A program made the translations under genes and the position numbers. A stretch of 64,000 nt of DNA from an uncultured Gammaproteobacteria bacterium (lineage in GTDB: Bacteria > Cyanobacteriota > Vampirovibrionia > LMEP-6097): positions 752,401 through 816,400 of the forward strand of contig CAYTKM010000001.1 of assembly GCA_964438425.1 (NCBI GenBank), written 5' to 3'. Under the pieces are notes generated by a model, which did no database searches, had not been told where the DNA came from, and saw only the letters and a program-made list of their open reading frames with translations. Positions 38,768 through 64,000 of the stretch are shown here, one piece after another. Each line of letters starts with the position of its first letter. Within the stretch, counting starts at the first letter, position 1.

Positions 38768-40967
<2,200 letters not shown>

Positions 40968-46388: not shown

Positions 46389-47912
46389 TTGTTAATATTG
46401 ATAGATATGCTCACTATTGATTACACTAAATTTAGTAAAATTACCACCGACAGCAGGCAAGTTAGCCAGCAGTCAATTTTTGTATGTATTAAAGGTGTCT
46501 CAACTGACGGTCATCAATATATAAAACCTGCTATTGAAAATGGTGCGGCGCACATCGTTATTAGCAAAGAATTTTTTGAAAGTAATCAGGTACTTATTGA
46601 AGATTTTAAAACAAGCTCTCAAGTTGACTTTGAAATTACTGAAGATACTAGCTTAAAACTAACTGAAATTCTTAAAGCTTATTATAAAAACGCACTTGAA
46701 AAGGTCACTTTATACGGTGTGACTGGTACTAATGGTAAAACTACGATCACGCATTTAATCCAGGAATTAATGTCAGATAAGCAAGGTAGTTGTGCCATGC
46801 TAGGTACTATTGGCTTTAAAGCTAGTCCTAATAAAGAGTACGAAGAATTAACTAACACTACTCCAGCACGTGAAATTGTTTATGACTATATTAACCAAGC
46901 TAGCCAGCAGGGAGCAAATAGCCTCACTATGGAAGTTAGCTCTCATGCTTTAGACCAAGGTAGAAGTGCTGGACTTAATTTTAAGCATGCGATAGTTAGT
47001 AATTTAACTCAAGATCACCTTGATTATCACCAAACCATGGATAATTACTTTGAAGCTAAAGCAAAGCTTCTAGAGCAAACCGAGGATCAGTTAATTGTAA
47101 ATCTAGATGATAGTTACGCTCAGCGTTTCATGTCTAAAGCTAAAGCTTCGATAACTGTTTCACTAAAAAATAAAGAAGCCGATTTATACGCTAGTAAAAT
47201 AGAAATCTCTGATGGAGGTCTATGCTACGAGGTAACTTTAAGTGAGGCTTTTAAAACAGCTTTTAAGATTTCAGTGAGTAGTTTTACTCTTAAAACTAAA
47301 CTGAATGGTATTTTTAATGTTTATAACACTTTGCTTGCTAGCACACTTGCGCTGATTGAGGGCATGGACACTGACACTTTAGCTGATAGACTAGTTAAGA
47401 TTGAGCCGATATCTGGGCGTTTTGAAACTATTACTGAACCTCAAAAACCACTTTGTATAGTGGATTATGCGCACAGTCCTGATGGCTTGAAAAATATTTT
47501 AACGGGTGCGCGCGCTTTAATCGATAAGACAGCTGAGTATGAAAAATTAATTTGTATTTTTGGTTGTGGTGGCGACCGTGATATTACTAAAAGACCGATC
47601 ATGGCAAGCATAGCCTATGAGCTATCAGATTATGTCTATGTGACTTCTGATAACCCACGTACTGAAGATCCTGCACAGATTATCTCAGATATACTAGCTG
47701 GCATGCCTAACCTCGATAAGGTAAAAGTGCTTGAAAATCGGGCTGAGGCTATCGCTGAGGCTATTAGGCAAGCTACTGCAAATGACGTGATTGTAGTAGC
47801 AGGTAAAGGGCATGAAGATTATCAAATATTAAAAGATAAAACTATAGATTTTGATGACAGGCTTCATGTTAAAGAGGCTTTAAAAGCTAGCTCCTCTTCC
47901 CAAAGCAACTGA
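46389..47912 (+). CDS. murE: UDP-N-acetylmuramoyl-L-alanyl-D-glutamate--2,6-diaminopimelate ligase (MurE); solitary, no dcw neighbours
   Basis: Mur ligase P-loop YGVTGTNGKTT; DNPR motif (SDNPRTEDP) consistent with DAP-type MurE; true start may be a downstream Met (MLTIDYTKF). Confidence 0.9.
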   Translation: MLILIDMLTIDYTKFSKITTDSRQVSQQSIFVCIKGVSTDGHQYIKPAIENGAAHIVISKEFFESNQVLIEDFKTSSQVDFEITEDTSLKLTEILKAYYKNALEKVTLYGVTGTNGKTTITHLIQELMSDKQGSCAMLGTIGFKASPNKEYEELTNTTPAREIVYDYINQASQQGANSLTMEVSSHALDQGRSAGLNFKHAIVSNLTQDHLDYHQTMDNYFEAKAKLLEQTEDQLIVNLDDSYAQRFMSKAKASITVSLKNKEADLYASKIEISDGGLCYEVTLSEAFKTAFKISVSSFTLKTKLNGIFNVYNTLLASTLALIEGMDTDTLADRLVKIEPISGRFETITEPQKPLCIVDYAHSPDGLKNILTGARALIDKTAEYEKLICIFGCGGDRDITKRPIMASIAYELSDYVYVTSDNPRTEDPAQIISDILAGMPNLDKVKVLENRAEAIAEAIRQATANDVIVVAGKGHEDYQILKDKTIDFDDRLHVKEALKASSSSQSN

Positions 47913-48886
47913 TAAACCAGATTTATAGCAAGTTCCTTAGCGATACTTGGTAAATTGTCATGATTTAATACTAGCCGATCATTTTTAACTTCCTGCGTGA
48001 AGTTATCGAGTTCGTATGGGTTAGTTTCTTTTAATTCGAAATATTTCACCGAGTGAGCTGCTAAGTGCTTTTGAACTTTATAATATAAATTTTGATTGGC
48101 TAAAACAGCTTCATAAATCTGAAAATTAAGCAGGTTGTTAGTGCCTTTAAGTGGTTTTAGATGATTAGGGTTTTTTATTAAAATAATTTTATCTTCTTCT
48201 AAAGAAATTAAATGAGAAGCTTTATCTTCAGATTCGTTATTTCGGTATTGTTTAAAATTTTTTTTAAATTCCTGCAACTTGATCTCACATAAATTCAAAT
48301 CTTTACTAATATGCAACATGTTAGGCTGATCTGAAATAGAGATCTTTAAAGTTTTAATGGTATCTATGGTATTTAGTACGATATCAAAGATTACATTAGG
48401 GTTCAGCACACAGTCACAGGCGCTAATTGCATTTTCATAACTTTTAAAAAACTTTTCAGATAAAGATTCTATGGCTGATTTCTGGGCTGTTTGTTGATTA
48501 CCTAGTAAAAGTTCACTATGCTTTGCGATACGATCAAAGGCGTCTTGCTCATTATTTAATAAAGTTTGATTAATAATTCTAATAAACGGCTGAGCATCGA
48601 AGATGAAGGCTTTAGCTTTAAAATACCAAGGTTTGCCGGCAAGCAGTTCAGCGAACTCTTGTTGTTTGCTAGCTAGAGTTTTAGGGTCTCTGTATTTGAT
48701 AGCTTCAGTTAGGCGCTCTAAAGTTTCGCACGCTAGTTGTTCTTTTAAAGCAAACCGCTCGTCATAACTTTTATTTGTTATTTCTACTAATTTGACTGAG
48801 ATTCTAAATGGTAAGAAGTGGTATTTATCCAAATCGTAACTTTGGAAAGACTTATTAAATTTTCTTACTACCTCAGCTAATTTCAT
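47864..48886 (-). CDS. Hypothetical helical protein (340 aa), ORFan
   Basis: Long ORF; 3' end overlaps murE 3' end by ~49 nt; no motif recognised. Confidence 0.45.
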   Translation of the reverse strand: MKLAEVVRKFNKSFQSYDLDKYHFLPFRISVKLVEITNKSYDERFALKEQLACETLERLTEAIKYRDPKTLASKQQEFAELLAGKPWYFKAKAFIFDAQPFIRIINQTLLNNEQDAFDRIAKHSELLLGNQQTAQKSAIESLSEKFFKSYENAISACDCVLNPNVIFDIVLNTIDTIKTLKISISDQPNMLHISKDLNLCEIKLQEFKKNFKQYRNNESEDKASHLISLEEDKIILIKNPNHLKPLKGTNNLLNFQIYEAVLANQNLYYKVQKHLAAHSVKYFELKETNPYELDNFTQEVKNDRLVLNHDNLPSIAKELAINLVYQLLWEEELAFKASLT

Positions 48887-48943: not shown

Positions 48944-49723
48944 ATGGTTTTAAGCAAAAGAATTATTCCCTGCCTAGATGTTGACCAAGGACGTGTGGTC
49001 AAGGGTGTTAACTTTGTTAACATTAAAGACGCTGGTGACCCAGCTGAACTAGCTCTAAAGTACTATGAGATGGGCGCAGATGAAATCTGCTTTTTAGATA
49101 TTACAGCAAGTCATGAAGCTCGTAAGACCACTTATGAAATCGTCTCTAAAACAGCTAAACAGATTTTTATTCCACTTACTGTAGGTGGTGGCGTAAATAG
49201 TGTAAGTGATGTTGAAAAGCTGTTACTGGCTGGAGCCGATAAGGTTGCTATTAATTCTGGTGCGGTGAAAAATCCAGAGTTAATTAATGAAGCCAGTAAG
49301 TGCTTTGGTAAGCAATGTATAGTGGCAGCAGTTGATGTAAAAAAGGTTACTGAAAATGAGTGGCATGTATTTACCATGGGTGGACGCCATGATACAGGTT
49401 TAGATGGTATCGAATGGATTAAAGAGCTTCAAGAGCGCGGTGCTGGTGAGCTTTTACTTACTAGCATGGATGGAGATGGCTCTAAGCAGGGCTATGATAT
49501 CGAGCTGACTACAGCAGTGGCTAAGTTCTTAGAGATTCCAATGATTGCAAGTGGCGGTGCTGGTAAGCTTGAGCATATTACGGATGTACTTAAAAGTGGT
49601 GCTGACGCTGCTTTGCTAGCTTCTATGCTACATTACGGTGAAACAACCGTAGGTGAAATTAAAGATTTTATGAATCGTCACCAGATACATGCGCGCGCGC
49701 AAAATGATTCTATAATATTTTGA
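48944..49723 (+). CDS. hisF: Imidazole glycerol phosphate synthase cyclase subunit HisF (solitary)
   Basis: [51 protein letters not shown] motifs; 259 aa. Confidence 0.9.
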
Positions 49724-49745: not shown

Positions 49746-50666
49746 TTATAAGGCAAATTTAAGATGGTTTATTAAATTTAAAGTATCTATCTTGAGCTGT
49801 GAAAGCGGCTCCGATTTGATTAAGAGCTCTTTATAAAAGTTGACTAAAGACTTAAGTAACAGGCTTTTTTCACTTTCAGAAATTTTAAAACTCTTCAAAT
49901 CCAATATTAATTGATACACTTTTTTATTATTGAAGCTGTTATAACGGCTAACATCATAAAAGTTAGCTTCTGAATCGACATTAATATCTAAACCAGATTC
50001 AGTATCTATTTTTACTGGAATAGCTAAAGGTAAGTCTATCTTGTTATAAGACTCTTCGATATAAAAAGCTGGCTCGTAGCAAGGTAATTCTCGTTTATTT
50101 TTAATAGAAGTCAATTTAAAGCCAAGGTCTTTAATAAATTCACTGCGCACACCCTGTGATAAACAGTCACCATCTAAATTGTTTAGTTTATCTATTAAGT
50201 ACAAATCCTGATTTAACTTCTCTATATCCAGCTCCGTTCTATCCAGACCGAAAATATACTTATCAATAGCAAAGTTCACGGCGTAGAGTTTATAGTCATA
50301 CTCAATATCAAATTGATTATTATTAACTAATTTGCCAGCTATATTTTTTTCGTAATGCAACTGCTCAGCTTGTAAAATTTTCTTTAAACGACGATCAAGA
50401 CTACCTGACCATTTATTTTTATGGTTTAGTTTTAAATTATCAATTTCGGTTTGTAGGTTTTGATAGGTTTTTTCATCAAGCTTGATAATTTTATTTTCTA
50501 AACCATTAATAATGTAATGTAACATTACCGATTTTTGTTGTATGTCAGCTCTAGCTAGCCTATCGATAATTTCATCGATAGCTGTACTACCTAAAATTTC
50601 CCAAAAAAAACTATCATGCTTTGAGGCAAATTGGTTTGAAGTAAATTCTGAAAACTTTTGCTTCAT
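49746..50666 (-). CDS. Hypothetical protein (306 aa), ORFan
   Basis: Long ORF, Asn/Lys/Asp-rich, no motif recognised. Confidence 0.45.
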   Translation of the reverse strand: MKQKFSEFTSNQFASKHDSFFWEILGSTAIDEIIDRLARADIQQKSVMLHYIINGLENKIIKLDEKTYQNLQTEIDNLKLNHKNKWSGSLDRRLKKILQAEQLHYEKNIAGKLVNNNQFDIEYDYKLYAVNFAIDKYIFGLDRTELDIEKLNQDLYLIDKLNNLDGDCLSQGVRSEFIKDLGFKLTSIKNKRELPCYEPAFYIEESYNKIDLPLAIPVKIDTESGLDINVDSEANFYDVSRYNSFNNKKVYQLILDLKSFKISESEKSLLLKSLVNFYKELLIKSEPLSQLKIDTLNLINHLKFAL

Positions 50667-50779
50667 TCATGTGCAGATAATATCATGATACCGATAGCTA
50701 AATCAAGAATTAATGCAGATGATCTACTTAGCCTGATAAGTATGGTTTTACCTTAAGGTATAATCTAGTTAAGGTATTT

Positions 50780-52189
50780 ATGAGCGAACTAAGGTATGAA
50801 TTATTAGAAGACTTTAAAGATTATAATCAGTCTTCGCTACTAAGAATTAGTCTTCAAGAATACGCTGAAAAAGGCGCTGATGTGTTTAATGCAGATAAAA
50901 CAAAAGACATCGTTCCTAATGCTATTACTAATAGCTATCCGCACGCTTTATCACTAGCTAGAATTGTGGTAAGTCAGCTTAAAAAAATTACACTTTTAGC
51001 CGATGAGAAATTCTTGGTACTTGAATGTGGCTGTGGTTCAGGGCTATTTACCAGAAATTTTCTAACAGCCTGCCGTAATTTAGAGATTTTAGATAAAATT
51101 CACTATTTAGCGAGTGATTTTGCAGAAACATTTTTAAATCAAATCAAACTCAGTGACTTACTTTGCGATTTTAATGAAGGTGAGCATTATAGTTTGATCA
51201 CTTTAGACTTGTTGAATATAGATCTATGTAAAAATTTAACTACCAGTCAGTCCTATGATTTAAAAAATTTGGATTTCGTGATTCTAAACTATGTTTTAGA
51301 TGTCTTACCGATGAGTGTTTATAAAAAAGTGCTACCTAATGAAGCTGCGGGCGCTAGTGAAGATGTTATTGATAGTGAAAGCAAGCTTATCAATGACAGA
51401 AATATTGAAGCTGAAACCTTAAAGCATAGTCCTAAGTTTCAAAAATTACAGCTAAAGCTAAGCAAACCTGAGGCTAAACAATCAGTACTGGCTGAATTAA
51501 AGGTAGAGGAGCGCTGGCAGGAGACTGATTTTAATGAACTTGAGAAACTTGAATTTAAGCATCTTGAAGTGCTTAAGTCATACGCAGATGTTTTTGCGCC
51601 AGACACTCGTCTTCACTTTAGTTATGGAGCAGTCGAGGTTATTAAGCAGCTGATTATTAAGTTAAGTGAACGTGGCTTTATTTATGCCTGCGAGGTGCCG
51701 TTTGCTAAATACTATGAGACTACGAACTATCAGATTTATAATAACGTACTTGTACATATGATTAATTTAGGGCAATTAAAGCTAAGTCTAGTCGATGAAA
51801 CACCAGCTGACACTTATGGTGATAATTATTTTCAAAGATTAATCATAGCTAAAAATTCAGAGACCTATAAAAGTTATCAGCTAGCTTTCAAAAGAGAATT
51901 TATCTACGAAAATAATACTACAGCTTACTATGAGATTAAACAAGCAATTAGAAAGCTAAAATCTCCCCAAAGCATAAAATATAGCTGGCCTTTAATTGAA
52001 AATTTAAAGACTCTAGACCCAGTTTCAGCGACTTACTGGTATTTTAAGGCTGAGTATCATAATCTTACCTATGAGCTTACAGAAGCTTATCAAGCTTATT
52101 TAAAAGTGCAGGAATTAGATATAACTTCTGAGTATGAAATCAAAGAAAAGCTAGCTAGTTTAGCTAAAGCTTTGCAAATAAATAATTAA
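50780..52189 (+). CDS. Class I SAM-dependent methyltransferase-like protein (possibly MidA/NDUFAF7-like) with helical C-terminal region
   Basis: Motif I-like FLVLECGCGSGLFTRNFL (compare MidA LVELGPGRGTL); 469 aa. Confidence 0.5.
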   Translation: MSELRYELLEDFKDYNQSSLLRISLQEYAEKGADVFNADKTKDIVPNAITNSYPHALSLARIVVSQLKKITLLADEKFLVLECGCGSGLFTRNFLTACRNLEILDKIHYLASDFAETFLNQIKLSDLLCDFNEGEHYSLITLDLLNIDLCKNLTTSQSYDLKNLDFVILNYVLDVLPMSVYKKVLPNEAAGASEDVIDSESKLINDRNIEAETLKHSPKFQKLQLKLSKPEAKQSVLAELKVEERWQETDFNELEKLEFKHLEVLKSYADVFAPDTRLHFSYGAVEVIKQLIIKLSERGFIYACEVPFAKYYETTNYQIYNNVLVHMINLGQLKLSLVDETPADTYGDNYFQRLIIAKNSETYKSYQLAFKREFIYENNTTAYYEIKQAIRKLKSPQSIKYSWPLIENLKTLDPVSATYWYFKAEYHNLTYELTEAYQAYLKVQELDITSEYEIKEKLASLAKALQINN

Positions 52190-52224
52190 GCTTACTAAAA
52201 GCCATTTGGCATATAATTTATTGA

Positions 52225-52977
52225 ATGTCTAACAACCAAATCGATGAATTTGCTAAGTGCTTTGATGATATTGCGGAAGACTTAGCTTGGTATTTAAAGC
52301 GTAATTATAAAAGTAGAATTAGATACCAGACTCATAATATAGAAACTAGCTTTAATAAAATTTTAGATAAAATTCAGGAGTTGGATGATTATATGTTTAA
52401 TACAGGTGATATCGAATTTTTGCATTCATGTCGATATTTAAGAAATTATATATTTCATAACAATCACCATCAAGCGATTAAAGATCTTAATAAAAGCTTT
52501 GTTACTAAGTTTAAAAAAATTCACCGTAAAGTATGTAAACCGATTACTGATGCTGAAGGGTTTAAGTCGGTTAGACAACTGCAAACAGCTAAGTGGACAG
52601 ATAAAGTGGAAAAACATGTCAAGCTGATGAAGTTACATGATCTACGTTTCATACCTATCTTAGTTAAAGGTAAACTGGATGGTATATTTAGTAGAAACAC
52701 TTTTTATGAAGCTTGCATAGACTCTGAAGCCTTTTATTACGATAGTACTACTAAATTAAATAATCCTGACCTTAAAAACTACATAAAATTTGATGAGAAA
52801 ATGATGGACTACGTGAAATTTGTGCCTAATAACTTACCGATATTCCTTATTGATGAAATATTTTATAAAGAAATGAAAAAGGGTAGTAAAACCAGCTTGC
52901 TGATAGTAACTGAAGATGGTAAAGCTAACCAGAAGGTTGAAGGTATGTTTAGCATCTGGGGGCTGTCAAGTTTATAA
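52225..52977 (+). CDS. Hypothetical protein: N-terminal helical domain with HEPN-like Rx4H motif + C-terminal CBS-pair-like region
   Basis: CRYLRNYIFHNNHH (R-x4-H); CBS-like strand-helix motifs FIPILVKGKLDGIFSRNTFYEA and SLLIVTEDGKANQKVEGMFSIWGL; 35 nt downstream of the MTase-like gene. Confidence 0.45.
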   Translation: MSNNQIDEFAKCFDDIAEDLAWYLKRNYKSRIRYQTHNIETSFNKILDKIQELDDYMFNTGDIEFLHSCRYLRNYIFHNNHHQAIKDLNKSFVTKFKKIHRKVCKPITDAEGFKSVRQLQTAKWTDKVEKHVKLMKLHDLRFIPILVKGKLDGIFSRNTFYEACIDSEAFYYDSTTKLNNPDLKNYIKFDEKMMDYVKFVPNNLPIFLIDEIFYKEMKKGSKTSLLIVTEDGKANQKVEGMFSIWGLSSL

Positions 52978-53010
52978 GTTGAAGATAATAGGCTAATTTA
53001 AAGTTTTAAA

Positions 53011-54003
53011 TTAATCCACTGCGTTTTCAAGTTCACTACCATCAATAAATTCAGCGAAGTTCTTAATAGTAGTACCAGCAATATTTAATAGAGCGTTTCT
53101 AGTTAAAAACGCCTGGTGACCGGTCACTAGAACATTTGGGAAGCTTAGCAGTCTGGTTAGTTGATCGTCGTCAATTATTTTATCTGAGACATCTTCAAAA
53201 AATATGCCAGCTTCTTCTTCATAAACATCTATACCTAAGTAAGCAATTTTCTTAGACTTTAAAGCCTGGATCGCAGCTTTAGTGTCGATTAAAGCACCTC
53301 TACTAGTATTAATAAGCATGACACCAGTTTTCATCTGAGCTATTAGTTTTTCATCAATCATATGATGAGTATCTGGAGTTAAAGGGCAGTGCAGGCTTAT
53401 AATATCTGACTTACTAACTAATTCATCAAGCTCAACTTTAGTTACGTTTTCAGGTTCTTTTTTTAAATAAGGGTCAGCTACCAGTACTTTTGCGCCGAAA
53501 CCATTTAAAATATTAGCCATACATTCACCAATCGCACCATAGCCGATTAAGCCGACATTTAAACCATGTATATCAAAACCTTCCAGACCAGCTAAAGCAA
53601 AATTACCTTCGCGCACACGGTTATAAGCTTTATGAGTTTTACGGTTTAAAGTTAAAATTAGTGACATAGCATGCTCAGCTACCGCATACGGTGAGTACTT
53701 AGGTACTCTAGCTACTTTAATACCGTATTTTTTGCAGGCATCTAAATCTACATTGTTAAAACCCGCACATCTAAGTAAAATTAACTTAATGCCGAACGTA
53801 TTTAATTTTTCTATCACATCAGCGCCGCAGTGATCATTTACAAATATACAGATCGCTTCATAATCTTTAGCTAGATCTACAGTCTTTAAATCTAAAGCTG
53901 GCTCGATATATTCAAATTCTATATCTTTTGAAGCAGATTTATCTAAAGCCTGCTTAAAGTGCTCGACTTCGTATTTTTTACTATTAAACATTAAACATTT
54001 CAT
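53011..54003 (-). CDS. D-isomer-specific 2-hydroxyacid dehydrogenase (D-lactate dehydrogenase-like), NAD-dependent
   Basis: Rossmann GLIGYGAIGECMANILNGFGAKV, catalytic R/E/H context (TSRGALID, VTGHQAF); 330 aa. Confidence 0.85.
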   Translation of the reverse strand: MKCLMFNSKKYEVEHFKQALDKSASKDIEFEYIEPALDLKTVDLAKDYEAICIFVNDHCGADVIEKLNTFGIKLILLRCAGFNNVDLDACKKYGIKVARVPKYSPYAVAEHAMSLILTLNRKTHKAYNRVREGNFALAGLEGFDIHGLNVGLIGYGAIGECMANILNGFGAKVLVADPYLKKEPENVTKVELDELVSKSDIISLHCPLTPDTHHMIDEKLIAQMKTGVMLINTSRGALIDTKAAIQALKSKKIAYLGIDVYEEEAGIFFEDVSDKIIDDDQLTRLLSFPNVLVTGHQAFLTRNALLNIAGTTIKNFAEFIDGSELENAVD

Positions 54004-54297: not shown

Positions 54298-56400
54298 CTA
54301 ACTAGCGCTGGTCGCTGGTTGTGATTCTACTTTACGAAAAACTGAGCGGCTAAGAATCACCGCAACATCTTCTATGTCAGGAGCTTTAGCAATGCCAGTT
54401 GTGTTAGCTGAACTTAACATTATATTACAGTATGGACAAGCTACCGCGACTTTATCAGGGCTATGCTCAGCTAGCTGCTCTAGTCTGTAAGCGTTAATCT
54501 CGCTACCAGGCATTTCATACCAGATCTGCGCGCCGCCGCCGCCACAGCAGGTGCTTTGGGTTTTTTCTTTAGCAATGGCTTTTAATTCGACTCCAGGAAT
54601 ATTTTCTAAAATATAACGTGGTGGATCCATCACGCGGTTGTATCTGGCTAAATAACAAGGATCATGGTAAGTAATAGTTTCATTAAGTTCGATGCTTGGT
54701 CTAAGTTTGTTGTTGGCGATTAGGTCAGCTAGAATTTCACTATGATGATAGACTTCTACATTTTCTAAACCGAAGTTTGGATATTCGTTTTTAAAAGTAT
54801 TATAAACATGCGGGCATTGCGTGATAATTTTTTTCACTCCGTAAGCTTTCATAATCTCGATATTTTCTATCACGATCTCTTGATACATCGCTTCATCGCC
54901 CGCGCGGCGCGCTACATCACCTGAGCTTTGTTCCTCTTTACCTAAAACTGCGAACTTTAAACCAGCTTCACTAAATAGCCTAGCGTTAGCGATAGTCACT
55001 TGCATATTTTTACTGTCGTAAGCACCTGGGCTACCTACCCAGTATAGGTATTCAAAGTTTTCAGAGTTTTTAGCTAGTACCTGGATGTCTAGATTATGAT
55101 CTTCTGTTACAGTTTTAATCCAGTTTAGTCTATCAGCAGCTGGCAAACCCCAAGGATTAGATTTAGTACGTACATTTTTTAAAGTGCTTTGCAGGTTGGC
55201 TGGAGCTTTATTACTAGCTAGTAAACCACGGCGCATATCAACTATGCTATCAACATGTTCGATTAGTACCGGGCAAGCTTCCACGCAGGCATAGCAGGTA
55301 GTACATGACCATAAAACATCTTCAGAAATGTGACTGTAAATGTCGCTTTTATTTTCAGTATCTGTGTAAGATAGCTGCTTAATATCTAGCATTAGGTGTT
55401 TAGGAGAAAGTGGTTTATCAGTGTTAACAGCCGGGCATTCCACGTGGCAGCGCCCGCAAGCAGTGCAAGCTTCACTATCCATTAGGGTTTTCCAGCTCAA
55501 ATCTTCATAGTTAAAAACACCAGCATTAAACTGCTCTTCATCGATCTCGATGCCCTTTTCTTCAGCTTCGAGCATATCCATTAATTTAAAAGGCGTATTT
55601 AGTTCACCGCGCGCGCGTCTAGATTTAAAAAAGATACTAAGCGGAGCAGTCATAATATGAATAAATTTAGTACGTGGTAATAGTGCGATAAAAGTAAAGG
55701 TAAGTACAGCATGTAGCCACCATAGACTTTGATGCGCGCTAGCTTGGTCAGCTGGAGTCATAAAACGAAATAGACTAGCTAGAGAATTACCTATAAAAGC
55801 ATAAGGCTCACTGGCATTAGTGCCAGCTATTCTTAAAGCCTCAGTTAAAAAACCAGTAATAACGAAAGCAAGTAGATAAGCAGGTTGAATCCAGTCATGT
55901 TGTCTACGATCAAGTTCACGTGGGTTAATGATGTATCTTCTCACGGTAAAAGCGATCACCCCTAAGAGTAAAAATAGCCCACCAATTTCAGCAGCTACGC
56001 TAATTAATTTGTAAAAACTACCCTGGAAAAAGTATGGACCTATATCCTGGGTGTAATCTTGCACGGCAACTATATTAGTTACTATCCACAAGGTCATGAA
56101 ACCTAAAAATACACCGATATGCGCTAAGCCTGGAACTTTACGTTTAGCTGTTTTTTTCTGCAAGAAAGCATACTGGAAAACATATTTAAGGCGACCTAAT
56201 AGATTATTAGTACGCGGCTCATATGGCATAGATTTGCCGTTAGTGATAGTTTTTAATCTTTTATATAAACCTGTAAGGAAAAACCCTACGCTAACTACAG
56301 CTAAAGCATAAAAAACGAAATGATGCCAGAAACCATGAAGGTTCCACCAAAGCTCACGCGTATCAAGGTTTACATTTGGTAATATTAAGTTGTATTCCAT
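54298..56400 (-). CDS. Membrane-anchored Fe-S oxidoreductase: N-terminal NarI/HdrE-like di-heme b domain fused to HdrD/GlpC-like 2x[4Fe-4S] + two CCG domains
   Basis: Five to six N-terminal TM helices with conserved His (HGFWHHF, HIGVF, HQSLWWLH); ferredoxin motifs CTACGRCHVECP and CTTCYACVEACP; CCG motifs ...ITQCPHVY... and TCCGGGGAQIW; 700 aa. Confidence 0.75.
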   Translation of the reverse strand: MEYNLILPNVNLDTRELWWNLHGFWHHFVFYALAVVSVGFFLTGLYKRLKTITNGKSMPYEPRTNNLLGRLKYVFQYAFLQKKTAKRKVPGLAHIGVFLGFMTLWIVTNIVAVQDYTQDIGPYFFQGSFYKLISVAAEIGGLFLLLGVIAFTVRRYIINPRELDRRQHDWIQPAYLLAFVITGFLTEALRIAGTNASEPYAFIGNSLASLFRFMTPADQASAHQSLWWLHAVLTFTFIALLPRTKFIHIMTAPLSIFFKSRRARGELNTPFKLMDMLEAEEKGIEIDEEQFNAGVFNYEDLSWKTLMDSEACTACGRCHVECPAVNTDKPLSPKHLMLDIKQLSYTDTENKSDIYSHISEDVLWSCTTCYACVEACPVLIEHVDSIVDMRRGLLASNKAPANLQSTLKNVRTKSNPWGLPAADRLNWIKTVTEDHNLDIQVLAKNSENFEYLYWVGSPGAYDSKNMQVTIANARLFSEAGLKFAVLGKEEQSSGDVARRAGDEAMYQEIVIENIEIMKAYGVKKIITQCPHVYNTFKNEYPNFGLENVEVYHHSEILADLIANNKLRPSIELNETITYHDPCYLARYNRVMDPPRYILENIPGVELKAIAKEKTQSTCCGGGGAQIWYEMPGSEINAYRLEQLAEHSPDKVAVACPYCNIMLSSANTTGIAKAPDIEDVAVILSRSVFRKVESQPATSAS

Positions 56401-56432: not shown

Positions 56433-59400
56433 ATGTCCGTTAACACTACCTTAAACACTCCTGAAATTTTTCATAAGCCATTATTCATAAAGCAACTAGC
56501 TAAAAAAGTGATCATTTATGACGGTGCTATGGGCACTAACCTCTTTAGTTATGATCTAAGTATAGAAGATTATGGTGGCGCCGAATATGAAGGCTGCCCT
56601 GAAAACCTAAACTATACTAAACCTGAGATAATTCAGGAAATTCATCGAAATTTTTATCAAGCTGGCGCTGATATTGTCGAAACTAATACCTTTGGTGCTT
56701 CGATTATTACGCTAGCTGAGTATAACCTTCAAGACAAGTGTAGAGAAATTAATATGCTCGCCGCTGCGCTGGCTCGCGAAGTTGCAGCTGAGTTCACCGC
56801 AGCCGAGCCCGCTAAGCCACGTATGGTCGCGGGCTCGATCGGTCCTGGAACTAAGCTGCCATCTTTAAATCATGTCGGCTTTGATGAACTTAAAGAATCA
56901 TATAAAGTGCAGATTAGAGCTTTAGTGGATGCGCTGGTTGATGTGATTTTAATTGAAACCTGTCAGGATCCTTTGCAGATTAAAGCCTGCATGATCGCTT
57001 GTTTTGAAGCTTTTCAGGATATTGAAGCTGAAAATAGTGAGCTTACTAATGAGCAGTTAGCTGAAAAATACCCGAATGCTGTCATCTATGAAAATGATAC
57101 CAGTGGGCGCGCAGGTCTTTATCAAAGATTTCGAGTGCCACTACAAGTGCAGGTGACAGTCGAGCAAATGGGAACTTTGCTAGTAGGCTCAGAACTTTCA
57201 AGCGCACTTACGACTGTTTCAGCTTACCCGATAGATATTTTCGGTATGAACTGTGCGACTGGTCCTAAAGAAATGCAGGAGCATTTGCAGTATCTGTCAC
57301 TAAACTCTCCATTCCAGATTAGTTGTTTGCCGAATGCTGGTATTCCAGAGAATGTATGTGGTCACGCGCATTTCCCGCTTAAGGCAGGTGAATTTACAGA
57401 ATACATGACTAAATTCATAGATAAGTATCAGCTAAGGGTAGTCGGTGGTTGTTGTGGTACTAGCTACGACCATATAAAGATGCTAAATGATGCTTATGAG
57501 GCTAGTGCTACTGCTAGTAAAGATCAAGCTAGGCTAGATTCGCTTTCGGAAACTAGCACTCTAAACCAGGACTTAGATAAAAACGATGTTTCTGATGAAG
57601 TCCAGAATGAAAGCAGCCATAGTAACTTTGCATGTGAAAGTACGAAAAATAATCTAACCAGTCCACAAAGCACTGAAAATAAACCTATATATAAAGACTC
57701 TGAAACTTTAATGGAAGCTTCAGCCCAGCCGATGGGGCGTAGACTTGAAAGTAACATTTTTAACTATGTTTCAAGTGTTTACGGTAATTTAGATATGGAC
57801 TTGGAGACTAAGCCGATTATAGTCGGTGAAAGAACTAATGCTAATGGCTCTAAAAAATTCCGTGATTTGCTGGCGGCTGAAAACTACGAAGAGATTATAG
57901 ATCTGGCTAAAGAGCAGTTAGCTGAAGGCGCGCAAATTTTAGATCTTTGTGCTGCGTTTGTCGGACGCGATGAGTCGCGTGATATGCAGGAGATTTTAAA
58001 AAGAGCTAACACTGCAGTTAATATTCCGATTATGATCGATAGCACAGAATCCAATGTGATTGAGGATTCCTTAAAGCTCATTTCAGGTAAATCGATTATT
58101 AATTCGGTAAACCTGGAAGATGGCGAAGAGCGCGTAGCTGAGATCGCTAAGCTTTGTAATAAATATGGCGCAGCGCTAGTAGTTTTAACTATTGATGAAA
58201 AGGGCATGGCTAAATCGATCGAAGATAAAGTTAGTATTGCTAAGCGTTTGTATGATCTGTTAGTTAACAAGCATGGTATGCGACCGTATGACCTGATTTA
58301 TGACACGCTAACTTTTACTTTGGGTTCAGGAGATGAGGAGTTTCGTCCAGCTGGCATTAATACCATCGAAGCGATTCGCGAGTTAAAGCGCGCCTTGCCT
58401 CACGTTAAAACTATTTTAGGGGTCAGTAACATTTCCTTTGGTTTAGATGCTAAATTGCGCCCAGCACTTAATTCTGTATTTTTATTTGAGGCGGTGAAAG
58501 CTGGCTTGGATATGGCGATTGTTAATAATAAAAAGATTATTCCTTTACATAAGATAGATGACGAGCTTAAGAAATACTGTTTAGACTTAGTCTATGACAA
58601 GCGTGAATTTAATGATCAAGAGGAAACTACTTACGATCCGCTAACTAAACTTATCGGTCTTGCTGAAAATGTAACTGCGTTTGATAACTCCCAGAAAAAT
58701 CCTTATGAAAAACTAACGACTGAAAAAACATTGGAACAAAGAATCATCGATGGTAATAAAACTAATATTGATGTTGACTTGCAGTTAGCTTTAGATAAAG
58801 GTTATAAACCACTTGAAATCATTAACGGCTTTTTAATGGATGGTATGAAAATTGTCGGTGAGCGTTTTGGAGCTGGTGAAATGCAGTTACCGTTTGTCTT
58901 ACAGTCCGCTACCACCATGAAAGCTGCGGTTGCGTACTTAGAGCCGTTTATGGAAAAGCTGGATGCTTCTAGTCATAAAGGCTCAATGGTACTTGCGACT
59001 GTTAAAGGTGACGTGCATGATATTGGTAAAAATCTGGTAGATATCATTTTAAGTAACAATGGCTATAAAGTGCATAATTTAGGTATCAAACAGCCTGTTG
59101 AAGAGATTTTGAAAGCTGTTGAAGCTCACAAACCTGACTTAGTAGCGCTTTCTGGTCTGCTGGTTAAATCCACTTTAATCATGAAGCAGAATCTGGAGGT
59201 TTTTAATGACAGGAATATAGACGTGCCAGTTATTTTAGGTGGCGCGGCGCTAACTAGAAAGTTTGTTGAGCAGGATTGTGCGGGGCTTTATAATGGTGAA
59301 GTTTATTATGGTGTAGATGCCTTTACTGATCTTGATATCATGGAAGATTTATGCGTGCATAAGATCTCAGCAGCCGAGGTGCGCGAAAAATATCATAAAG

Positions 59401-60335
59401 TGAAAAGTGCTGATAATGACGATCAGGCTTATGAAGTTGTCAGTGAGCAAGAGGAAGAAGAAAATCTACGCAAAGCTATAGAGTTTACTAGTAAACTCTC
59501 TGAAACTAAGATTCTAACCCCAGCTGAAGTGCCTGTGGCGCCGTTTTATGGTTTTAAACATTTAGGCAGTCAGGACATACCTTTAGGTGAAATCTGGCAT
59601 TACTTAAATTTAGATGCCATGATCATCGGACAGTGGCGTATGGGTAAAGGTAAGATGAGCGTTGAGGAGTACGCTGAGCACCGCCGACATGTAATTATGC
59701 CTATTTTAGAGCGTTTGAAACGTGAAACACTTGCTAGTAATTGGTTGCAGGCTCAAGCTGCTTATGGTTATTTCTATGCTAAAGTTGATCCTGAAAATCC
59801 TAATAAACTAAATATATATGATGAGCAGCGTGAAAATATCATCGAAACTTTTGTCTTTCCGCGTCAGTCAGAGAAAAAGAATTTATGCCTGACTGATTAT
59901 TTCAGATTAAGTGATCCTGAAGCCTTTAATTTAGTCGGTTTTCAAATCGCGACCATCGGCGAGTCGGCAGCGAACTTCGTGCAAAAACTCTACACCAGTG
60001 ATGAGTATAGTGAATATTTATATTATTATGGTTTCGCCACTGAATGCACTGAAGCTACAGCTGAGTGGGTGCACGCTAGAGCGCGCCGTGAATTAGGTTT
60101 CGGGGCTGAAGATGTGGCTGAGGTACCTAAGTTACTGCGTGGTGGCTATCATGGTATGCGCTTTAGTTTTGGTTATCCAGCTTGCCCGCGCCTAGAGGAC
60201 CAGGAACAGCTCTTTAGATTATTAAAGGCTGATGATTTAGGTCTTAAGCTGAGTGAAGAGTGGCAGATTCACCCTGAACATAGTACAAGTGCGATCGTGA
60301 TTCATCATCCTGAGGCTAAGTATTTTAATATTTAA
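56433..60335 (+). CDS. metH: Cobalamin-dependent methionine synthase MetH with ~75-aa low-complexity linker insertion (1300 aa)
   Basis: Hcy-binding domain (GGCCGT region VVGGCCGTSYDHI), pterin-binding domain, B12-binding DVHDIGKN (DxHxxG), C-terminal AdoMet activation domain; low-complexity insertion SKDQARLDSLSETSTLNQDLDKNDVSDEVQNESS... between Hcy and pterin domains. Confidence 0.95.
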   Translation: MSVNTTLNTPEIFHKPLFIKQLAKKVIIYDGAMGTNLFSYDLSIEDYGGAEYEGCPENLNYTKPEIIQEIHRNFYQAGADIVETNTFGASIITLAEYNLQDKCREINMLAAALAREVAAEFTAAEPAKPRMVAGSIGPGTKLPSLNHVGFDELKESYKVQIRALVDALVDVILIETCQDPLQIKACMIACFEAFQDIEAENSELTNEQLAEKYPNAVIYENDTSGRAGLYQRFRVPLQVQVTVEQMGTLLVGSELSSALTTVSAYPIDIFGMNCATGPKEMQEHLQYLSLNSPFQISCLPNAGIPENVCGHAHFPLKAGEFTEYMTKFIDKYQLRVVGGCCGTSYDHIKMLNDAYEASATASKDQARLDSLSETSTLNQDLDKNDVSDEVQNESSHSNFACESTKNNLTSPQSTENKPIYKDSETLMEASAQPMGRRLESNIFNYVSSVYGNLDMDLETKPIIVGERTNANGSKKFRDLLAAENYEEIIDLAKEQLAEGAQILDLCAAFVGRDESRDMQEILKRANTAVNIPIMIDSTESNVIEDSLKLISGKSIINSVNLEDGEERVAEIAKLCNKYGAALVVLTIDEKGMAKSIEDKVSIAKRLYDLLVNKHGMRPYDLIYDTLTFTLGSGDEEFRPAGINTIEAIRELKRALPHVKTILGVSNISFGLDAKLRPALNSVFLFEAVKAGLDMAIVNNKKIIPLHKIDDELKKYCLDLVYDKREFNDQEETTYDPLTKLIGLAENVTAFDNSQKNPYEKLTTEKTLEQRIIDGNKTNIDVDLQLALDKGYKPLEIINGFLMDGMKIVGERFGAGEMQLPFVLQSATTMKAAVAYLEPFMEKLDASSHKGSMVLATVKGDVHDIGKNLVDIILSNNGYKVHNLGIKQPVEEILKAVEAHKPDLVALSGLLVKSTLIMKQNLEVFNDRNIDVPVILGGAALTRKFVEQDCAGLYNGEVYYGVDAFTDLDIMEDLCVHKISAAEVREKYHKVKSADNDDQAYEVVSEQEEEENLRKAIEFTSKLSETKILTPAEVPVAPFYGFKHLGSQDIPLGEIWHYLNLDAMIIGQWRMGKGKMSVEEYAEHRRHVIMPILERLKRETLASNWLQAQAAYGYFYAKVDPENPNKLNIYDEQRENIIETFVFPRQSEKKNLCLTDYFRLSDPEAFNLVGFQIATIGESAANFVQKLYTSDEYSEYLYYYGFATECTEATAEWVHARARRELGFGAEDVAEVPKLLRGGYHGMRFSFGYPACPRLEDQEQLFRLLKADDLGLKLSEEWQIHPEHSTSAIVIHHPEAKYFNI

Positions 60336-61070: not shown

Positions 61071-64000
61071 TTATAAAGGCATAACGTTTTCATGCTTTAA
61101 ATCGTCTTGAAGATTAGTTTGAATTGGTAAATATTCAAAGATTTGATTGATTTTCTGATTAACCAAATCGTCAAAATTTGAATCCGAATCTGAAAGAAGG
61201 CTTTCAAGACCATCGTGCTTTTCTTGACTATGGAATTTATATCTATTGTCGTCTAGTACTCCTTTTAGTGGTTTTTTCAAAAATTCAAGGTCTATATAAT
61301 GAATTTTAAAACCCAAATTCTTGCTAACTTTATCATAAGTGTATATAGCTGTAAGTAGTATTCTGAAATTAGCAATAAACAGTACGGCTAAATCTTTTAG
61401 ATTGTAATAATTATTTCTTATATACCAACCTGATGAATTACCTTGATCAGCAAATCTCTCTTTTTCATATAAAATTCCAAAATATTCAGCATAAGCTTTC
61501 AAATAATACTTAACTTGATTATATCCTTGATTTACTACATATTCATTAGGTTGACTTGTTTCAAGCTGAGATGCCTTTTTTTGCAAAGCCTGTAAATGAG
61601 ATTTAATTTCACATACTGTTTCGTGAAATTGATCTGAGTTTTGGTTAGATATTAGTTCTTCTATTCTCTCTATAAATCTATCTACTTTTTGAGTATCGAA
61701 TACATCATGCATAGGTCGCTTACATCTAAAAGCATTATTTAGAGAAGTGAATGACGTACTTTCAAACTCATTAAGCCTATTACCTATTTGGTGGGGGGCA
61801 CTATGAATATCGGGTTCATCAGACATGACAACACCATTTAATAATGTCCATTGCTTAATATCTGGGTCAAGTGTAAAACGAGTCTTAAATTTAGTAAGTT
61901 CATCTTTAAAATCCTTAATATTAGTAGTAGTCCGGAAATCCTCGTCGGTGATGATTCTACGATTTAATAGTTCATCTATATCAGACTTCAAATTATCCAA
62001 ATACTCTCCTGATAAAGTTTGTTGTATGCAAAGCAGTGTTTTAGAAAGTAACCTATTAAACTGTTTTTGTAAAATGTTATACATCACACTTCTATCTTCA
62101 GGTGGATTATTTAAGGATTCATCAGAAGTATTAAGTAGAGTAGTATATTGATTGAAACCAAAATTTGAATTAAAAATAAATTGATCTAAGGTATGAAAGT
62201 ATATCTGAGAAATATTGAATGTGCTGGCATTTTGATTCCAAGACTGTAGTAATTCGTTTCCAAGGTCGTATTCAAGAAAGCCAATTAACAACATATCGTA
62301 AAGTTGCTTTTTTTCTGGCTCATTGTAATTGCTATAAGTGTAATTTAAAATTACGTCTAATTTAGCTAATAGGTTGGAGCCAACTTCAAGCTCCCAATTG
62401 TTGTAGCTAGCTGGTACATGTTCAGGTTTTGTTATATCTTTAACAATATTTTCAGTCGTGTAGGTCTTATATTTATCTGAAAAAAACTTAAAAAAGTTAT
62501 ATAAAATTTTCTTTTCACCAGTAACATTGTAAATCTTTATATCCTTAAGACTAGTGGTGTTAAGAATAGCAATTTTAGCTGGATCACGATAGTAAAAATT
62601 CATACGATTAACTATCTCTAAGTTAGTAGATTTTATTTCTTTATAATTTGGACACAAAACAGTATTAAATTCATCTATTAACTCTAAATCATCTATACGA
62701 TCTTTAAGATTTTTACAAAAACAATGAAGTAATATTTCGACTGGAAAATAAATGTTTTTTTCCTTTAGAGAGATATCTAAAAAATCAAAGCAGATTTTTT
62801 CAAGTATTCTATACGAATTTATGTATTTGGATAATAGCGAAAAAGCTGTAATTAGCTTTTTTTCTTTCATTCGAGAATTATTTTCAAACAGCTGCTTAAC
62901 ATTTTCAAGAACTTCTAGTCTATTTTTTAAACTAAAGTAAGTACTTTCATAAGAAATTAACTTAATCGCTCTTTCTATAACTTTAATAACTAAACTTTCA
63001 CTACTAAATTTTACTTGGATCTCTTTATCAAAAATCTTTTCTAAATATATTGATGCTTGATTATCCATATTTGAATTTGCGTTTAAACTATTTTCAATAG
63101 AGCTATTAATTAGTAATTTATCGTATGCTACGAAAATGTAAGTATTAACGAAATCTAGCCTATTTCTGATTAAACCTAAAATATTACGGATATCTTCCTT
63201 GTCTAGTAGACGATCAATATTATCTATGAAAATAAATATTTGCCTGTTATTTTCGAAGATTTTGTTATTGATGTCTCTAAGATTTTGATTAATATTGTCA
63301 TTAATTAGAAATGAATTAAAGTAACTGATCCATGGGTGCAGGGAAGATATTTGAGCTATATAACGTTGTAGATTTTTATTGATGGTGGGTATCTCGCTAA
63401 TTAGTTTGTCTTCAATCTGATCTAAGAAATTTCGAATTAGAAGATCACTTTTTAGAAGATCACTTTTTGAATCGTATTGCCATAAGTCAAAATCTATAAT
63501 AATAGGGTCTGTGCACGCTAAAAAATTTAAAGCTGGACTGTTAGTCTGACCTTCAATAATACTTTTAATTGCTTGCATGTAACTTGACTTGCCAGTCCCC
63601 CAGCCACCAGTGATACCTGTAATAAAACTGTTTCTGGTTTGCGATGATATTTCTTCTTTTAAAGGAGATTCACTCTTATTATTTATTAAGTTATATATAG
63701 AAGTCACATGCTGGAGAACCTCTATTTTAATAGATTCGTTGTAATTTGAAAAACTATAAAGCTGATTTAGGCTTGTGACTTTAGTGCTTTGAGTTTCATT
63801 TAAATAATTACCTAAGTCTATAAAATTCACATAGTCTTCTTCACTGTTAATAGCATTACTTTGATTTAAACTCTCACGATCATCTAAGTATTCTAGTAGA
63901 ATATCGAGTGCACTTTCAGTTGGTACTTTAGTCGCTTTTATATTGTTTGATAGATAAGTTATAAAACCTATAGGTAATGGCAGGATAAATAAAATTAAAT
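61071..64000 (-). CDS. KAP-family P-loop NTPase, large (>975 aa), partial: N-terminus lies beyond window end
   Basis: KAP Walker A GITGGWGTGKSSY (G-x-W-G-x-GKS) and Walker B-like IFIFIDNIDRLL; no TM insertion in the NTPase domain; ~600-aa C-terminal region without recognisable motifs; manual translation shows the frame stays open upstream of the ORF-track GTG (63828-63830) through position 64000. Confidence 0.8.
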   Translation of the reverse strand, partial: LILFILPLPIGFITYLSNNIKATKVPTESALDILLEYLDDRESLNQSNAINSEEDYVNFIDLGNYLNETQSTKVTSLNQLYSFSNYNESIKIEVLQHVTSIYNLINNKSESPLKEEISSQTRNSFITGITGGWGTGKSSYMQAIKSIIEGQTNSPALNFLACTDPIIIDFDLWQYDSKSDLLKSDLLIRNFLDQIEDKLISEIPTINKNLQRYIAQISSLHPWISYFNSFLINDNINQNLRDINNKIFENNRQIFIFIDNIDRLLDKEDIRNILGLIRNRLDFVNTYIFVAYDKLLINSSIENSLNANSNMDNQASIYLEKIFDKEIQVKFSSESLVIKVIERAIKLISYESTYFSLKNRLEVLENVKQLFENNSRMKEKKLITAFSLLSKYINSYRILEKICFDFLDISLKEKNIYFPVEILLHCFCKNLKDRIDDLELIDEFNTVLCPNYKEIKSTNLEIVNRMNFYYRDPAKIAILNTTSLKDIKIYNVTGEKKILYNFFKFFSDKYKTYTTENIVKDITKPEHVPASYNNWELEVGSNLLAKLDVILNYTYSNYNEPEKKQLYDMLLIGFLEYDLGNELLQSWNQNASTFNISQIYFHTLDQFIFNSNFGFNQYTTLLNTSDESLNNPPEDRSVMYNILQKQFNRLLSKTLLCIQQTLSGEYLDNLKSDIDELLNRRIITDEDFRTTTNIKDFKDELTKFKTRFTLDPDIKQWTLLNGVVMSDEPDIHSAPHQIGNRLNEFESTSFTSLNNAFRCKRPMHDVFDTQKVDRFIERIEELISNQNSDQFHETVCEIKSHLQALQKKASQLETSQPNEYVVNQGYNQVKYYLKAYAEYFGILYEKERFADQGNSSGWYIRNNYYNLKDLAVLFIANFRILLTAIYTYDKVSKNLGFKIHYIDLEFLKKPLKGVLDDNRYKFHSQEKHDGLESLLSDSDSNFDDLVNQKINQIFEYLPIQTNLQDDLKHENVMPL

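Follow-up and report, generated by a model that had tools for sequence, protein, structure and literature searches.

A MidA-like methyltransferase gene beside a HEPN-CBS gene: probably two separate genes, one of them a divergent member of a widespread family

Background

Do two genes that lie side by side on the same strand work together, or are they simply neighbours? The question is raised by a pair of genes in a stretch of 64,000 nucleotides, referred to here as the window, from the genome of an uncultured Gammaproteobacteria bacterium (assembly GCA_964438425.1, contig CAYTKM010000001.1, positions 752,401 to 816,400 of the forward strand; GTDB lineage Bacteria, Cyanobacteriota, Vampirovibrionia, LMEP-6097). 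The upstream gene (50780..52189, + strand) encodes a protein of 469 amino acids (aa), the downstream gene (52225..52977, + strand) encodes a protein of 250 aa, and the 35-nt spacer between them (52190..52224, +) contains no terminator-like hairpin. An earlier interpretation, made from the letters and the list of open reading frames (ORFs) and called here the sequence-only reading, described the first product as a MidA-like S-adenosylmethionine (SAM) methyltransferase with a long helical C-terminus and the second as an N-terminal HEPN-like domain joined to a CBS pair, and it proposed that a ligand-gated nuclease next to a SAM-consuming enzyme could form a two-gene toxin/sensor or defence module, or a pair of secreted effectors. 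Its coordinates, strand, intergenic gap and two key motifs, VLECGCGSGLF and RNYIFH, all agree with the ORF list and the translation, and the ORF list together with domain scans also bears out its description of orphan ORFs on alternating strands around a solitary hisF gene.

We find that the pair probably consists of two separate genes that are adjacent and co-oriented in one lineage, one for a MidA-like methyltransferase and the other for a HEPN-CBS protein that is likely a ligand-regulated ribonuclease (RNase). No other genome examined pairs them, and they appear to be separate, rather unremarkable genes that do not make up a new two-gene system.

Co-occurrence of the two genes

Co-occurrence was examined at 48 loci carrying a HEPN-CBS gene, which represent 25 lineages at 70% identity and 313 kb of sequence, and at six loci carrying a MidA-like gene. 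Each family was searched with tblastn against the loci of the other, and nothing better than an E value of 0.01 was obtained. A MidA-like gene was found at 0 of the 48 HEPN-CBS loci and a HEPN-CBS gene at 0 of the 6 MidA-like loci. The sequence-only reading had itself named co-conservation in other genomes as the check on its two-gene module, and the proposal does not withstand that comparison.

The relatives of each gene keep other and varied company. Those of the MidA-like gene lie beside a divergent pheT gene and an M20 peptidase gene in two metagenome-assembled genomes (MAGs) and have pheT upstream in a third contig, while the neighbours elsewhere encode a DAO oxidase and a GH31 hydrolase, or a TPR-sulfotransferase. 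The M20 peptidase downstream of the MidA-like relatives is unrelated to the 250-aa protein. The relatives of the HEPN-CBS gene are stand-alone genes located beside GGDEF-EAL, AraC/FecCD, ABC-F/NadA and other genes, and an all-against-all clustering of neighbours across the 25 HEPN-CBS lineages revealed no conserved small gene, for instance one for an antitoxin, that accompanies the family. A two-gene module is not supported by these observations. Within the window itself, a hairpin scan of positions 50500-53200 detected no terminator-like sites, and co-transcription of the 469-aa and 250-aa genes is possible.

The MidA-like methyltransferase

Taken alone, the 469-aa protein produced only sub-threshold matches to generic methyltransferase models when scanned against Pfam, NCBIfam and PADLOC. 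In Pfam these were Methyltransf_12 (E value 0.0039) and Methyltransf_28 (E value 0.01, 15.7 bits, below the gathering threshold of 23.3), and the single PADLOC match was a weak one to the generic methyltransferase model mad2 (E value 0.0024). An indexed homology search returned three full-length relatives with 27-32% identity, and a genome scan added two more from uncultured gammaproteobacterial MAGs. At the level of the family the assignment became clearer, with PF02636 (Methyltransf_28) matched by all four of the aligned members (best E value 1.3e-8) and a precomputed PF02636 match recorded for one relative, P0003. The SAM-binding motif I, VLECGCGSGLF, occupies residues 80-90 of the translation (51017..51049, +), and V80, L81, E82, C83, G84, G86, S87, G88 and F90 are invariant in the four-sequence alignment, as are D113 and the block N170-Y171-V-x-D174-x-x-P177.

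The AlphaFold2 model of this protein had a mean predicted local distance difference test score (pLDDT) of 67.3 and a predicted template modelling (TM) score of 0.69. When the model was compared with the PDB using Foldseek, the best four matches were the MidA structures 5zu0 and 5ztz (E value 1.3e-6) and the COG1565 structures 4g67 and 1zkd; these four, with E values from 1.3e-6 to 7e-5 and TM scores of 0.38-0.47, outranked every other methyltransferase. The C-terminal region (residues ~360-465; 51857..52174, +) is all-helical in the model, with pLDDT values of ~77-95, and is predicted to contain one TPR unit or more, as positions 390-430 of the family profile matched consensus TPR proteins of the PDB (E value 1.3e-13) and TPR models of Pfam were matched by two of the relatives. 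Searched against PDB sequences, the same family profile found TPR proteins alone and no MidA, so that the link to MidA rests on Pfam and Foldseek. These profiles and the model predict that the 469-aa protein is a divergent MidA/NDUFAF7-type (COG1565) class I SAM methyltransferase with a C-terminal TPR region, much as the sequence-only reading had described it. The chemistry of MidA/NDUFAF7 is protein arginine methylation, of NDUFS2, and to our knowledge an arginine methyltransferase function is known solely for eukaryotic and alphaproteobacterial MidA.

Two further features of this gene and its relatives were observed. The window protein carries PNEAAGASEDVIDSESKLINDRNIEAETLKHS, an acidic insertion of ~30 residues (~186-215; window positions 51335-51424) that is present in no relative and was modelled with pLDDT values below 50. 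In gammaproteobacterial MAGs the MidA-like/TPR gene is divergent from pheT (locus L009, 2698-5264; L010, 5935-8540; also L007), and the gene that follows it in such MAGs encodes an M20/M25/M40 peptidase and overlaps the stop codon of the methyltransferase gene by 4 bp. The MidA-like gene and the M20/M25/M40 peptidase gene may form a conserved operon, and the peptidase neighbour may be a sign that this methyltransferase family modifies proteins or peptides.

The HEPN-CBS protein

The 250-aa sequence alone matched nothing in Pfam, NCBIfam or PADLOC, and an indexed search of 5.8 billion clusters retrieved only the protein itself. The orphan status suggested by that search was overturned by an exhaustive HMMER search, in which phmmer run against 1.84 billion representatives found 289 relatives at an E value of 1e-3 or better and 18 at 1e-10 or better. 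Nearly all of these proteins are 225-250 aa long and align over most of their length with 20-30% identity. The 289 cluster representatives come mostly from anaerobic and gut bacteria, and a profile constructed from 41 relatives re-finds the 250-aa protein with an E value of 1.4e-55. The gene is not clearly a pseudogene, since its reading frame is unbroken and several metagenome contigs carry identical copies of it.

The C-terminal half of the protein (residues ~108-250; 52546..52974, +) is predicted, from profiles and the structural model, to be a CBS pair, or Bateman module, with a degenerate ligand site. PF00571 was matched by 40 of the 41 relatives (best E value 2.4e-15), and the family profile matched CBS proteins of the PDB, the best being MJ1225 with an E value of 2.6e-17. 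In the AlphaFold2 model (mean pLDDT 73.9) the CBS half scored 80-94 and the HEPN half ~50-73. Foldseek aligned this model with the CBS pairs of AMPK-gamma, AcuB and IMPDH (E values of ~1e-5) and also with the Bateman module of CcpN, and the superpositions covered 135-150 columns with target-normalised TM scores of 0.6-0.7.

The N-terminal half (residues 1 to ~105; 52225..52539, +) is helical and HEPN-like, as judged from the AlphaFold2 model and profiles, and contains RNYIFH (R73, N74 and H78; 52441..52458, +), an R-N-x3-H motif of the catalytic type. In a single sequence such a motif is not beyond chance, as composition-preserving shuffles of the 250-aa protein contained Rx4H in 25% and R[NDH]x3H in 5% of cases; it is meaningful here because it is invariant across the relatives. 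R73, N74 and H78 do not vary in the 41-sequence alignment, and among 138 full-length relatives the R was kept in 136, the N in 136 and the H in 137. HEPN domains are defined by Rx4-6H, with a polar N, D or H following the R, and their second signature is an acidic one, E-x3-[KR] (PMC3710099). The corresponding acidic residue of the first helix is E or D in 133 of the 138 relatives, with R or K four residues on in 87; the E-x3-[KR] columns in the window protein hold A17 and A21, with E18 and D19 adjacent, in a part where the alignment is uncertain.

A profile of the N-terminal half searched against 177,635 PDB sequences gave just four matches at an E value of 10 or better, namely three HepT toxins and Cas13b. 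The HepT match (E value 0.04, 72 aligned residues) placed RNxxxH over the catalytic RNIAVH, and in Cas13b the two HEPN motifs were both matched, again with catalytic motif on catalytic motif. Weak Pfam matches among the 41 relatives were to HepT-like (6 relatives, best E value 1.9e-5), RiboL-PSP-HEPN (6), Cthe2314-HEPN (3) and DUF4145 (2), and also to MAE_28990, Swt1 and Abi_2, making at least seven HEPN-clan families overall; DUF4145 is assigned to clan CL0291 (table in PMC13092281). The helices modelled in this half span residues 3-27, 39-60, 62-79 and 90-104 at pLDDT values of 50-73, and RNYIFH lies where the third of these helices (62-79) ends, ahead of the last one (90-104). The known HEPN fold, a four-helix bundle, carries Rx4-6H where helix 3 ends or where the loop to helix 4 begins (PMC3710099). 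The individual lines of evidence, from profiles, motif conservation and the model, are each weak, but they converge, and it is very likely that the N-terminal half is a HEPN domain. Both halves of the protein had been named in this way by the sequence-only reading, and the call of the CBS pair is borne out by the PF00571, PDB profile and Foldseek matches, that of the HEPN-like domain by motif conservation and the HepT and Cas13b matches.

The CBS ligand site of the window copy departs from that of its relatives. Its CBS2 segment reads G240-M-F-S243-I-W-G246, which is the canonical G-h-h-[TS]-x-x-D without its Asp; the position of G246 is occupied by D in 128 of the 138 relatives, and the Asp in this column is, we assume, the residue that binds the ligand ribose in CBS domains. 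R157 stands where 107 of the 138 have E, L140 where 115 have Y or F, F142 where 81 have H and S243 where 117 have T. The L140 column was paired by hhalign with Y157 of DS-11, an anti-phage protein that also combines CBS and HEPN domains. In view of the D246G, Y/F140L and E157R replacements, the ligand dependence of the window copy may be altered or lost. The suggestion that SAM is the ligand of this CBS pair gains no support, and the window protein also lacks the canonical ribose-binding Asp.

Genomic neighbourhoods of the HEPN-CBS family

We scanned 77 flanking proteins from the 25 HEPN-CBS lineages for recurrent domains. Most frequent were ABC_tran/ABC_tran_Xtn of the ABC-F type (4) and the MnmA tRNA 2-thiouridylase (3), followed by SpoU, UvrD, DegV, GGDEF and RelA_SpoT (2 each) and by RtcB and N6 DNA methylase (1 each). 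PADLOC matches among these neighbours were cross-matches to generic ABC-ATPases and a UvrD helicase, and a defence-island context for the family, which had been considered, was rejected on that account. No homologues of the 250-aa protein were found by tblastn in phage and plasmid collections. Neighbour clustering detected solely a clade-specific synteny of SpoU, ABC-F, HEPN-CBS and MnmA. The overall context of the family is one of housekeeping, RNA and nucleotide signalling rather than of defence islands.

The clade-specific order of SpoU, ABC-F, HEPN-CBS and MnmA was seen in gut and rumen contigs (L016, L039, L040, L053/L054 and L058), with gaps of 3-42 nt on either side of the HEPN-CBS gene. 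The ABC-F proteins of this clade are 85-87% identical, and these contigs therefore represent one related group, but identity among their HEPN-CBS proteins is below 70%. The difference suggests that in the gut/rumen clade the HEPN-CBS gene is a fast-evolving gene inside a translation/tRNA operon. A different setting was observed for one relative, P0168 (JGI 3300047160 locus), which lies between three resolvase genes and a BREX-like cluster of PglZ and an SNF2 helicase; in no other case did the surroundings of a family member clearly resemble those of a defence system or a mobile element.

Interpretation and alternative explanations

By analogy with characterized proteins, the 250-aa protein is most likely a dimeric, ligand-regulated RNase. 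Its CBS pairs would dimerise, dimerisation would join two HEPN domains into a composite, metal-independent RNase site, and a ligand of the adenine-nucleotide type in the Bateman cleft would set the geometry of the HEPN domains and hence RNA cleavage. Nucleotide gating of this kind has been predicted for HEPN-CBS fusions (PMC3710099), and the mutagenesis of DS-11 is in support of it (PMC13092281). With its degenerate site, the window copy might be active at all times, inactive at all times, or responsive to a different ligand. The 469-aa methyltransferase would act independently of the 250-aa protein. Its TPR region probably recruits a protein substrate, and we infer that the protein bound in this way is methylated because of the known chemistry of MidA and NDUFAF7.

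Several points weigh against this interpretation. Both window proteins fall individually below Pfam thresholds, and the domain calls for both come from family-level profiles and from models of intermediate mean pLDDT (73.9 for the 250-aa protein and 67.3 for the 469-aa protein). The HEPN homology is statistically weak, with E values of 0.04 against HepT and 0.048 against the HEPN domain of DS-11, and the first acidic HEPN motif of the window protein is blurred (A17/A21). The window protein is also without the CBS2 Asp (G246) and without an aromatic equivalent of DS-11 Y157 (L140), and may be a derivative that is inactive or has a regulatory role. Finally, the terminator-free 35-nt gap leaves room for co-transcription, and hence for a functional link particular to this lineage.

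If the two genes did form a functional toxin/sensor or defence module, the CBS pair would, for instance, sense SAM or S-adenosylhomocysteine (SAH) that the methyltransferase uses up or makes, and gate the nuclease. Such an arrangement would suit two co-oriented genes that are so closely spaced with no terminator-like hairpin between them; SAM is bound by the CBS pairs of some proteins, and the remodelled ligand site of the window copy could mean that its ligand has changed. Against this stand the absence of co-occurrence in either direction and the varied neighbours of both families, as well as the lack of a meaningful PADLOC match for either protein and the hisF, ldhA, murE and metH genes that flank the pair, and we consider the module highly improbable. 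The idea of a secreted-effector pair found no positive evidence. There is likewise little to recommend a coupling confined to this lineage, in which the genes would be co-transcribed and a pocket altered by D246G, Y140L and E157R would now sense SAM, SAH or a methylated product of the MidA-like enzyme; were this slim chance true, the protein would be a methylation-state-gated HEPN RNase.

The remaining alternatives concern the 250-aa protein itself. It might be a single-gene abortive-infection system like DS-11, triggered by a nucleotide signal that is induced by phage. The two proteins have their domain types and the RNxxxH motif in common, their CBS1 segments align with an E value of 2.5e-5 in a region that includes the Y157 column, the DS11_antiphage model NF053863 was weakly matched by 15 of the 41 relatives (best E value 2.6e-6), and while one relative lies near PglZ, SNF2 helicase and resolvase genes, another lies beside an N6 DNA methylase gene. 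However, the domain order is reversed with respect to DS-11, the protein has 250 rather than 365 aa with no equivalent of the N-terminal region of DS-11, and the window copy itself does not match NF053863, having L140 in place of Y157 and G at the Asp position 246. Most neighbourhoods of the family are housekeeping ones (ABC-F, MnmA, SpoU, NadA, RelA/SpoT, GGDEF) whose PADLOC matches are generic, phage and plasmid homologues are lacking in the collections searched, and the window locus lies among core genes, all of which makes an anti-phage role unlikely. Alternatively, the N-terminal domain might not be a nuclease at all, and the protein might be a CBS ligand sensor with a helical adaptor that binds protein or nucleic acid and in which the R, N and H are kept for binding. 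The HEPN matches are weak enough, and the pLDDT of this half low enough (~50-73), to allow for it; non-catalytic HEPN-like domains exist (PMC3710099), and one relative bears the JGI name 'predicted transcriptional regulator'. Yet non-catalytic HEPN domains, such as the substrate-binding domains of nucleotidyltransferases, typically lose Rx4-6H (PMC3710099), whereas in this family each of the three residues is retained by 136-137 of the 138 relatives and the second, acidic/basic motif is kept too, a pattern typical of active HEPN RNases. Pfam scans of the window protein and its relatives detected no DNA-binding domain, and a non-nuclease function appears very unlikely.

Our preferred interpretation is that of two separate genes, with the 250-aa protein likely acting as a ligand-regulated RNase, and it removes the tempting idea of a new two-gene defence or effector module. 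The apparent orphan is a very divergent member of a sizeable, widespread and uncharacterised family of ~240-aa HEPN+CBS proteins. This family is a mirror image of DS-11, yet it is found mostly among translation, tRNA and nucleotide-signalling genes, and is a reasonable target for the study of housekeeping or stress roles of CBS-gated HEPN RNases. The main value of the analysis lies in the HEPN-then-CBS family as a whole and not in the window locus, whose news value is modest.

Surroundings of the gene pair

The genes around the pair are housekeeping genes (hisF, ldhA, murE and metH), the wider window is core chromosome containing rpoA, aroA, rpsD, murE and metH, and the GC content across the locus is even at ~0.33-0.35. 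Upstream of the pair, the solitary hisF (48944-49723, +; His_biosynth E value 6.8e-82) is flanked by an ORF of 340 aa (47864-48886, -), which overlaps the 3' end of the convergent murE by 49 nt, and an ORF of 306 aa (49746-50666, -). Neither of these two ORFs has a match in Pfam, NCBIfam, PADLOC or PDB sequences, and each is a singleton at 90% clustering, present only on contigs of the same organism. Downstream of the 250-aa gene, and convergent with it, lies a gene for a D-2-hydroxyacid dehydrogenase (53011-54003).

Further downstream are genes for a 700-aa membrane Fe-S/CCG-domain oxidoreductase (54298-56400, -) and for a full-length B12-dependent methionine synthase, MetH, of 1300 aa (56433-60335, +). 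MetH supplies the SAM cycle, and no evidence ties it to the 469-aa methyltransferase. A 919-aa protein with a KAP-family P-loop NTPase domain (E value 2e-19) is encoded at 61071-63830 (-), in the part of the window with the lowest GC content (0.28 at 62-64 kb), ~8 kb from the gene pair, and this gene could be mobile or conflict-related. At some distance on the other side, a 478-aa ATPase of the ATP-synt_ab family (39531-40967, -), whose domain set is that of FliI or the ATPases of type III secretion, stands away from any F1Fo operon in the window.

Comparison with known systems

The 469-aa protein shares the class I SAM methyltransferase fold and motif I with MidA and NDUFAF7 (PF02636; 5zu0, 5ztz, 4g67 and 1zkd), but is only 11-13% identical to the MidA structures. 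It differs from them in having the lineage-specific insertion of ~30 aa and the C-terminal TPR region, and in scoring below the Pfam threshold. Nothing in the window ties its gene to complex I genes.

The best profile match of the N-terminal domain of the 250-aa protein was to HepT of the HepT/MntA (type VII) toxin-antitoxin systems (5yep and 6m6u; PF01934), at an E value of ~0.04, but the HEPN domain of the 250-aa protein shares its polypeptide chain with a CBS pair. No adjacent gene for an MNT nucleotidyltransferase antitoxin was found in the window or in relatives from the 25 lineages. A HepT-MntA identity for the gene pair was ruled out, as the upstream gene encodes a MidA-like methyltransferase and no nucleotidyltransferase gene adjoins the 250-aa gene.

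In 2013, Anantharaman, Makarova, Burroughs, Koonin and Aravind described fusions of HEPN and CBS domains, in some cases with an HD domain as well, and predicted that they regulate the stability of RNA in response to nucleotides; their examples include gi 118580987 of Pelobacter propionicus and alr3009, which has an added HD domain (PMC3710099). By their published description, those fusions resemble the 250-aa protein in that CBS domains are joined to a HEPN domain whose Rx4H motif is intact; unlike the 250-aa family, some carry the extra HD phosphohydrolase domain.

A validated counterpart is DS-11 (WP_000257686.1, 365 aa), a one-protein CBS+HEPN anti-phage system from the DefensePredictor study (Science 2026; PMC13092281), in which defence is lost upon any one of the substitutions Y157A in the CBS region and R330A and H335A in the HEPN domain. 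The NCBIfam model for it, NF053863, is named 'CBS domain-containing anti-phage protein'. Its sequence and the accompanying HHpred table indicate an N-terminal region of ~120 aa, a CBS pair at ~125-245 and a Swt1/SAV2148-like HEPN domain at 252-362. Both DS-11 and the 250-aa protein are single polypeptides that combine a CBS pair with a HEPN domain bearing R-N-x3-H, but the order of CBS then HEPN is reversed in the 250-aa family, whose members are also ~120 residues shorter. Profile comparison with hhalign aligned two parts only, the RNxxxH segments, where the similarity is marginal (E value 0.048), and the CBS1 segments (E value 2.5e-5). In principle, and by analogy, the 250-aa protein could work like DS-11 without being a member of the DS-11 family, and the 250-aa family is most aptly viewed as an independent, or else a permuted, fusion of HEPN and CBS. 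The 250-aa protein can thus be placed as a divergent member of the kind of protein described in 2013, and as a mirror-image form of the one validated in 2026.

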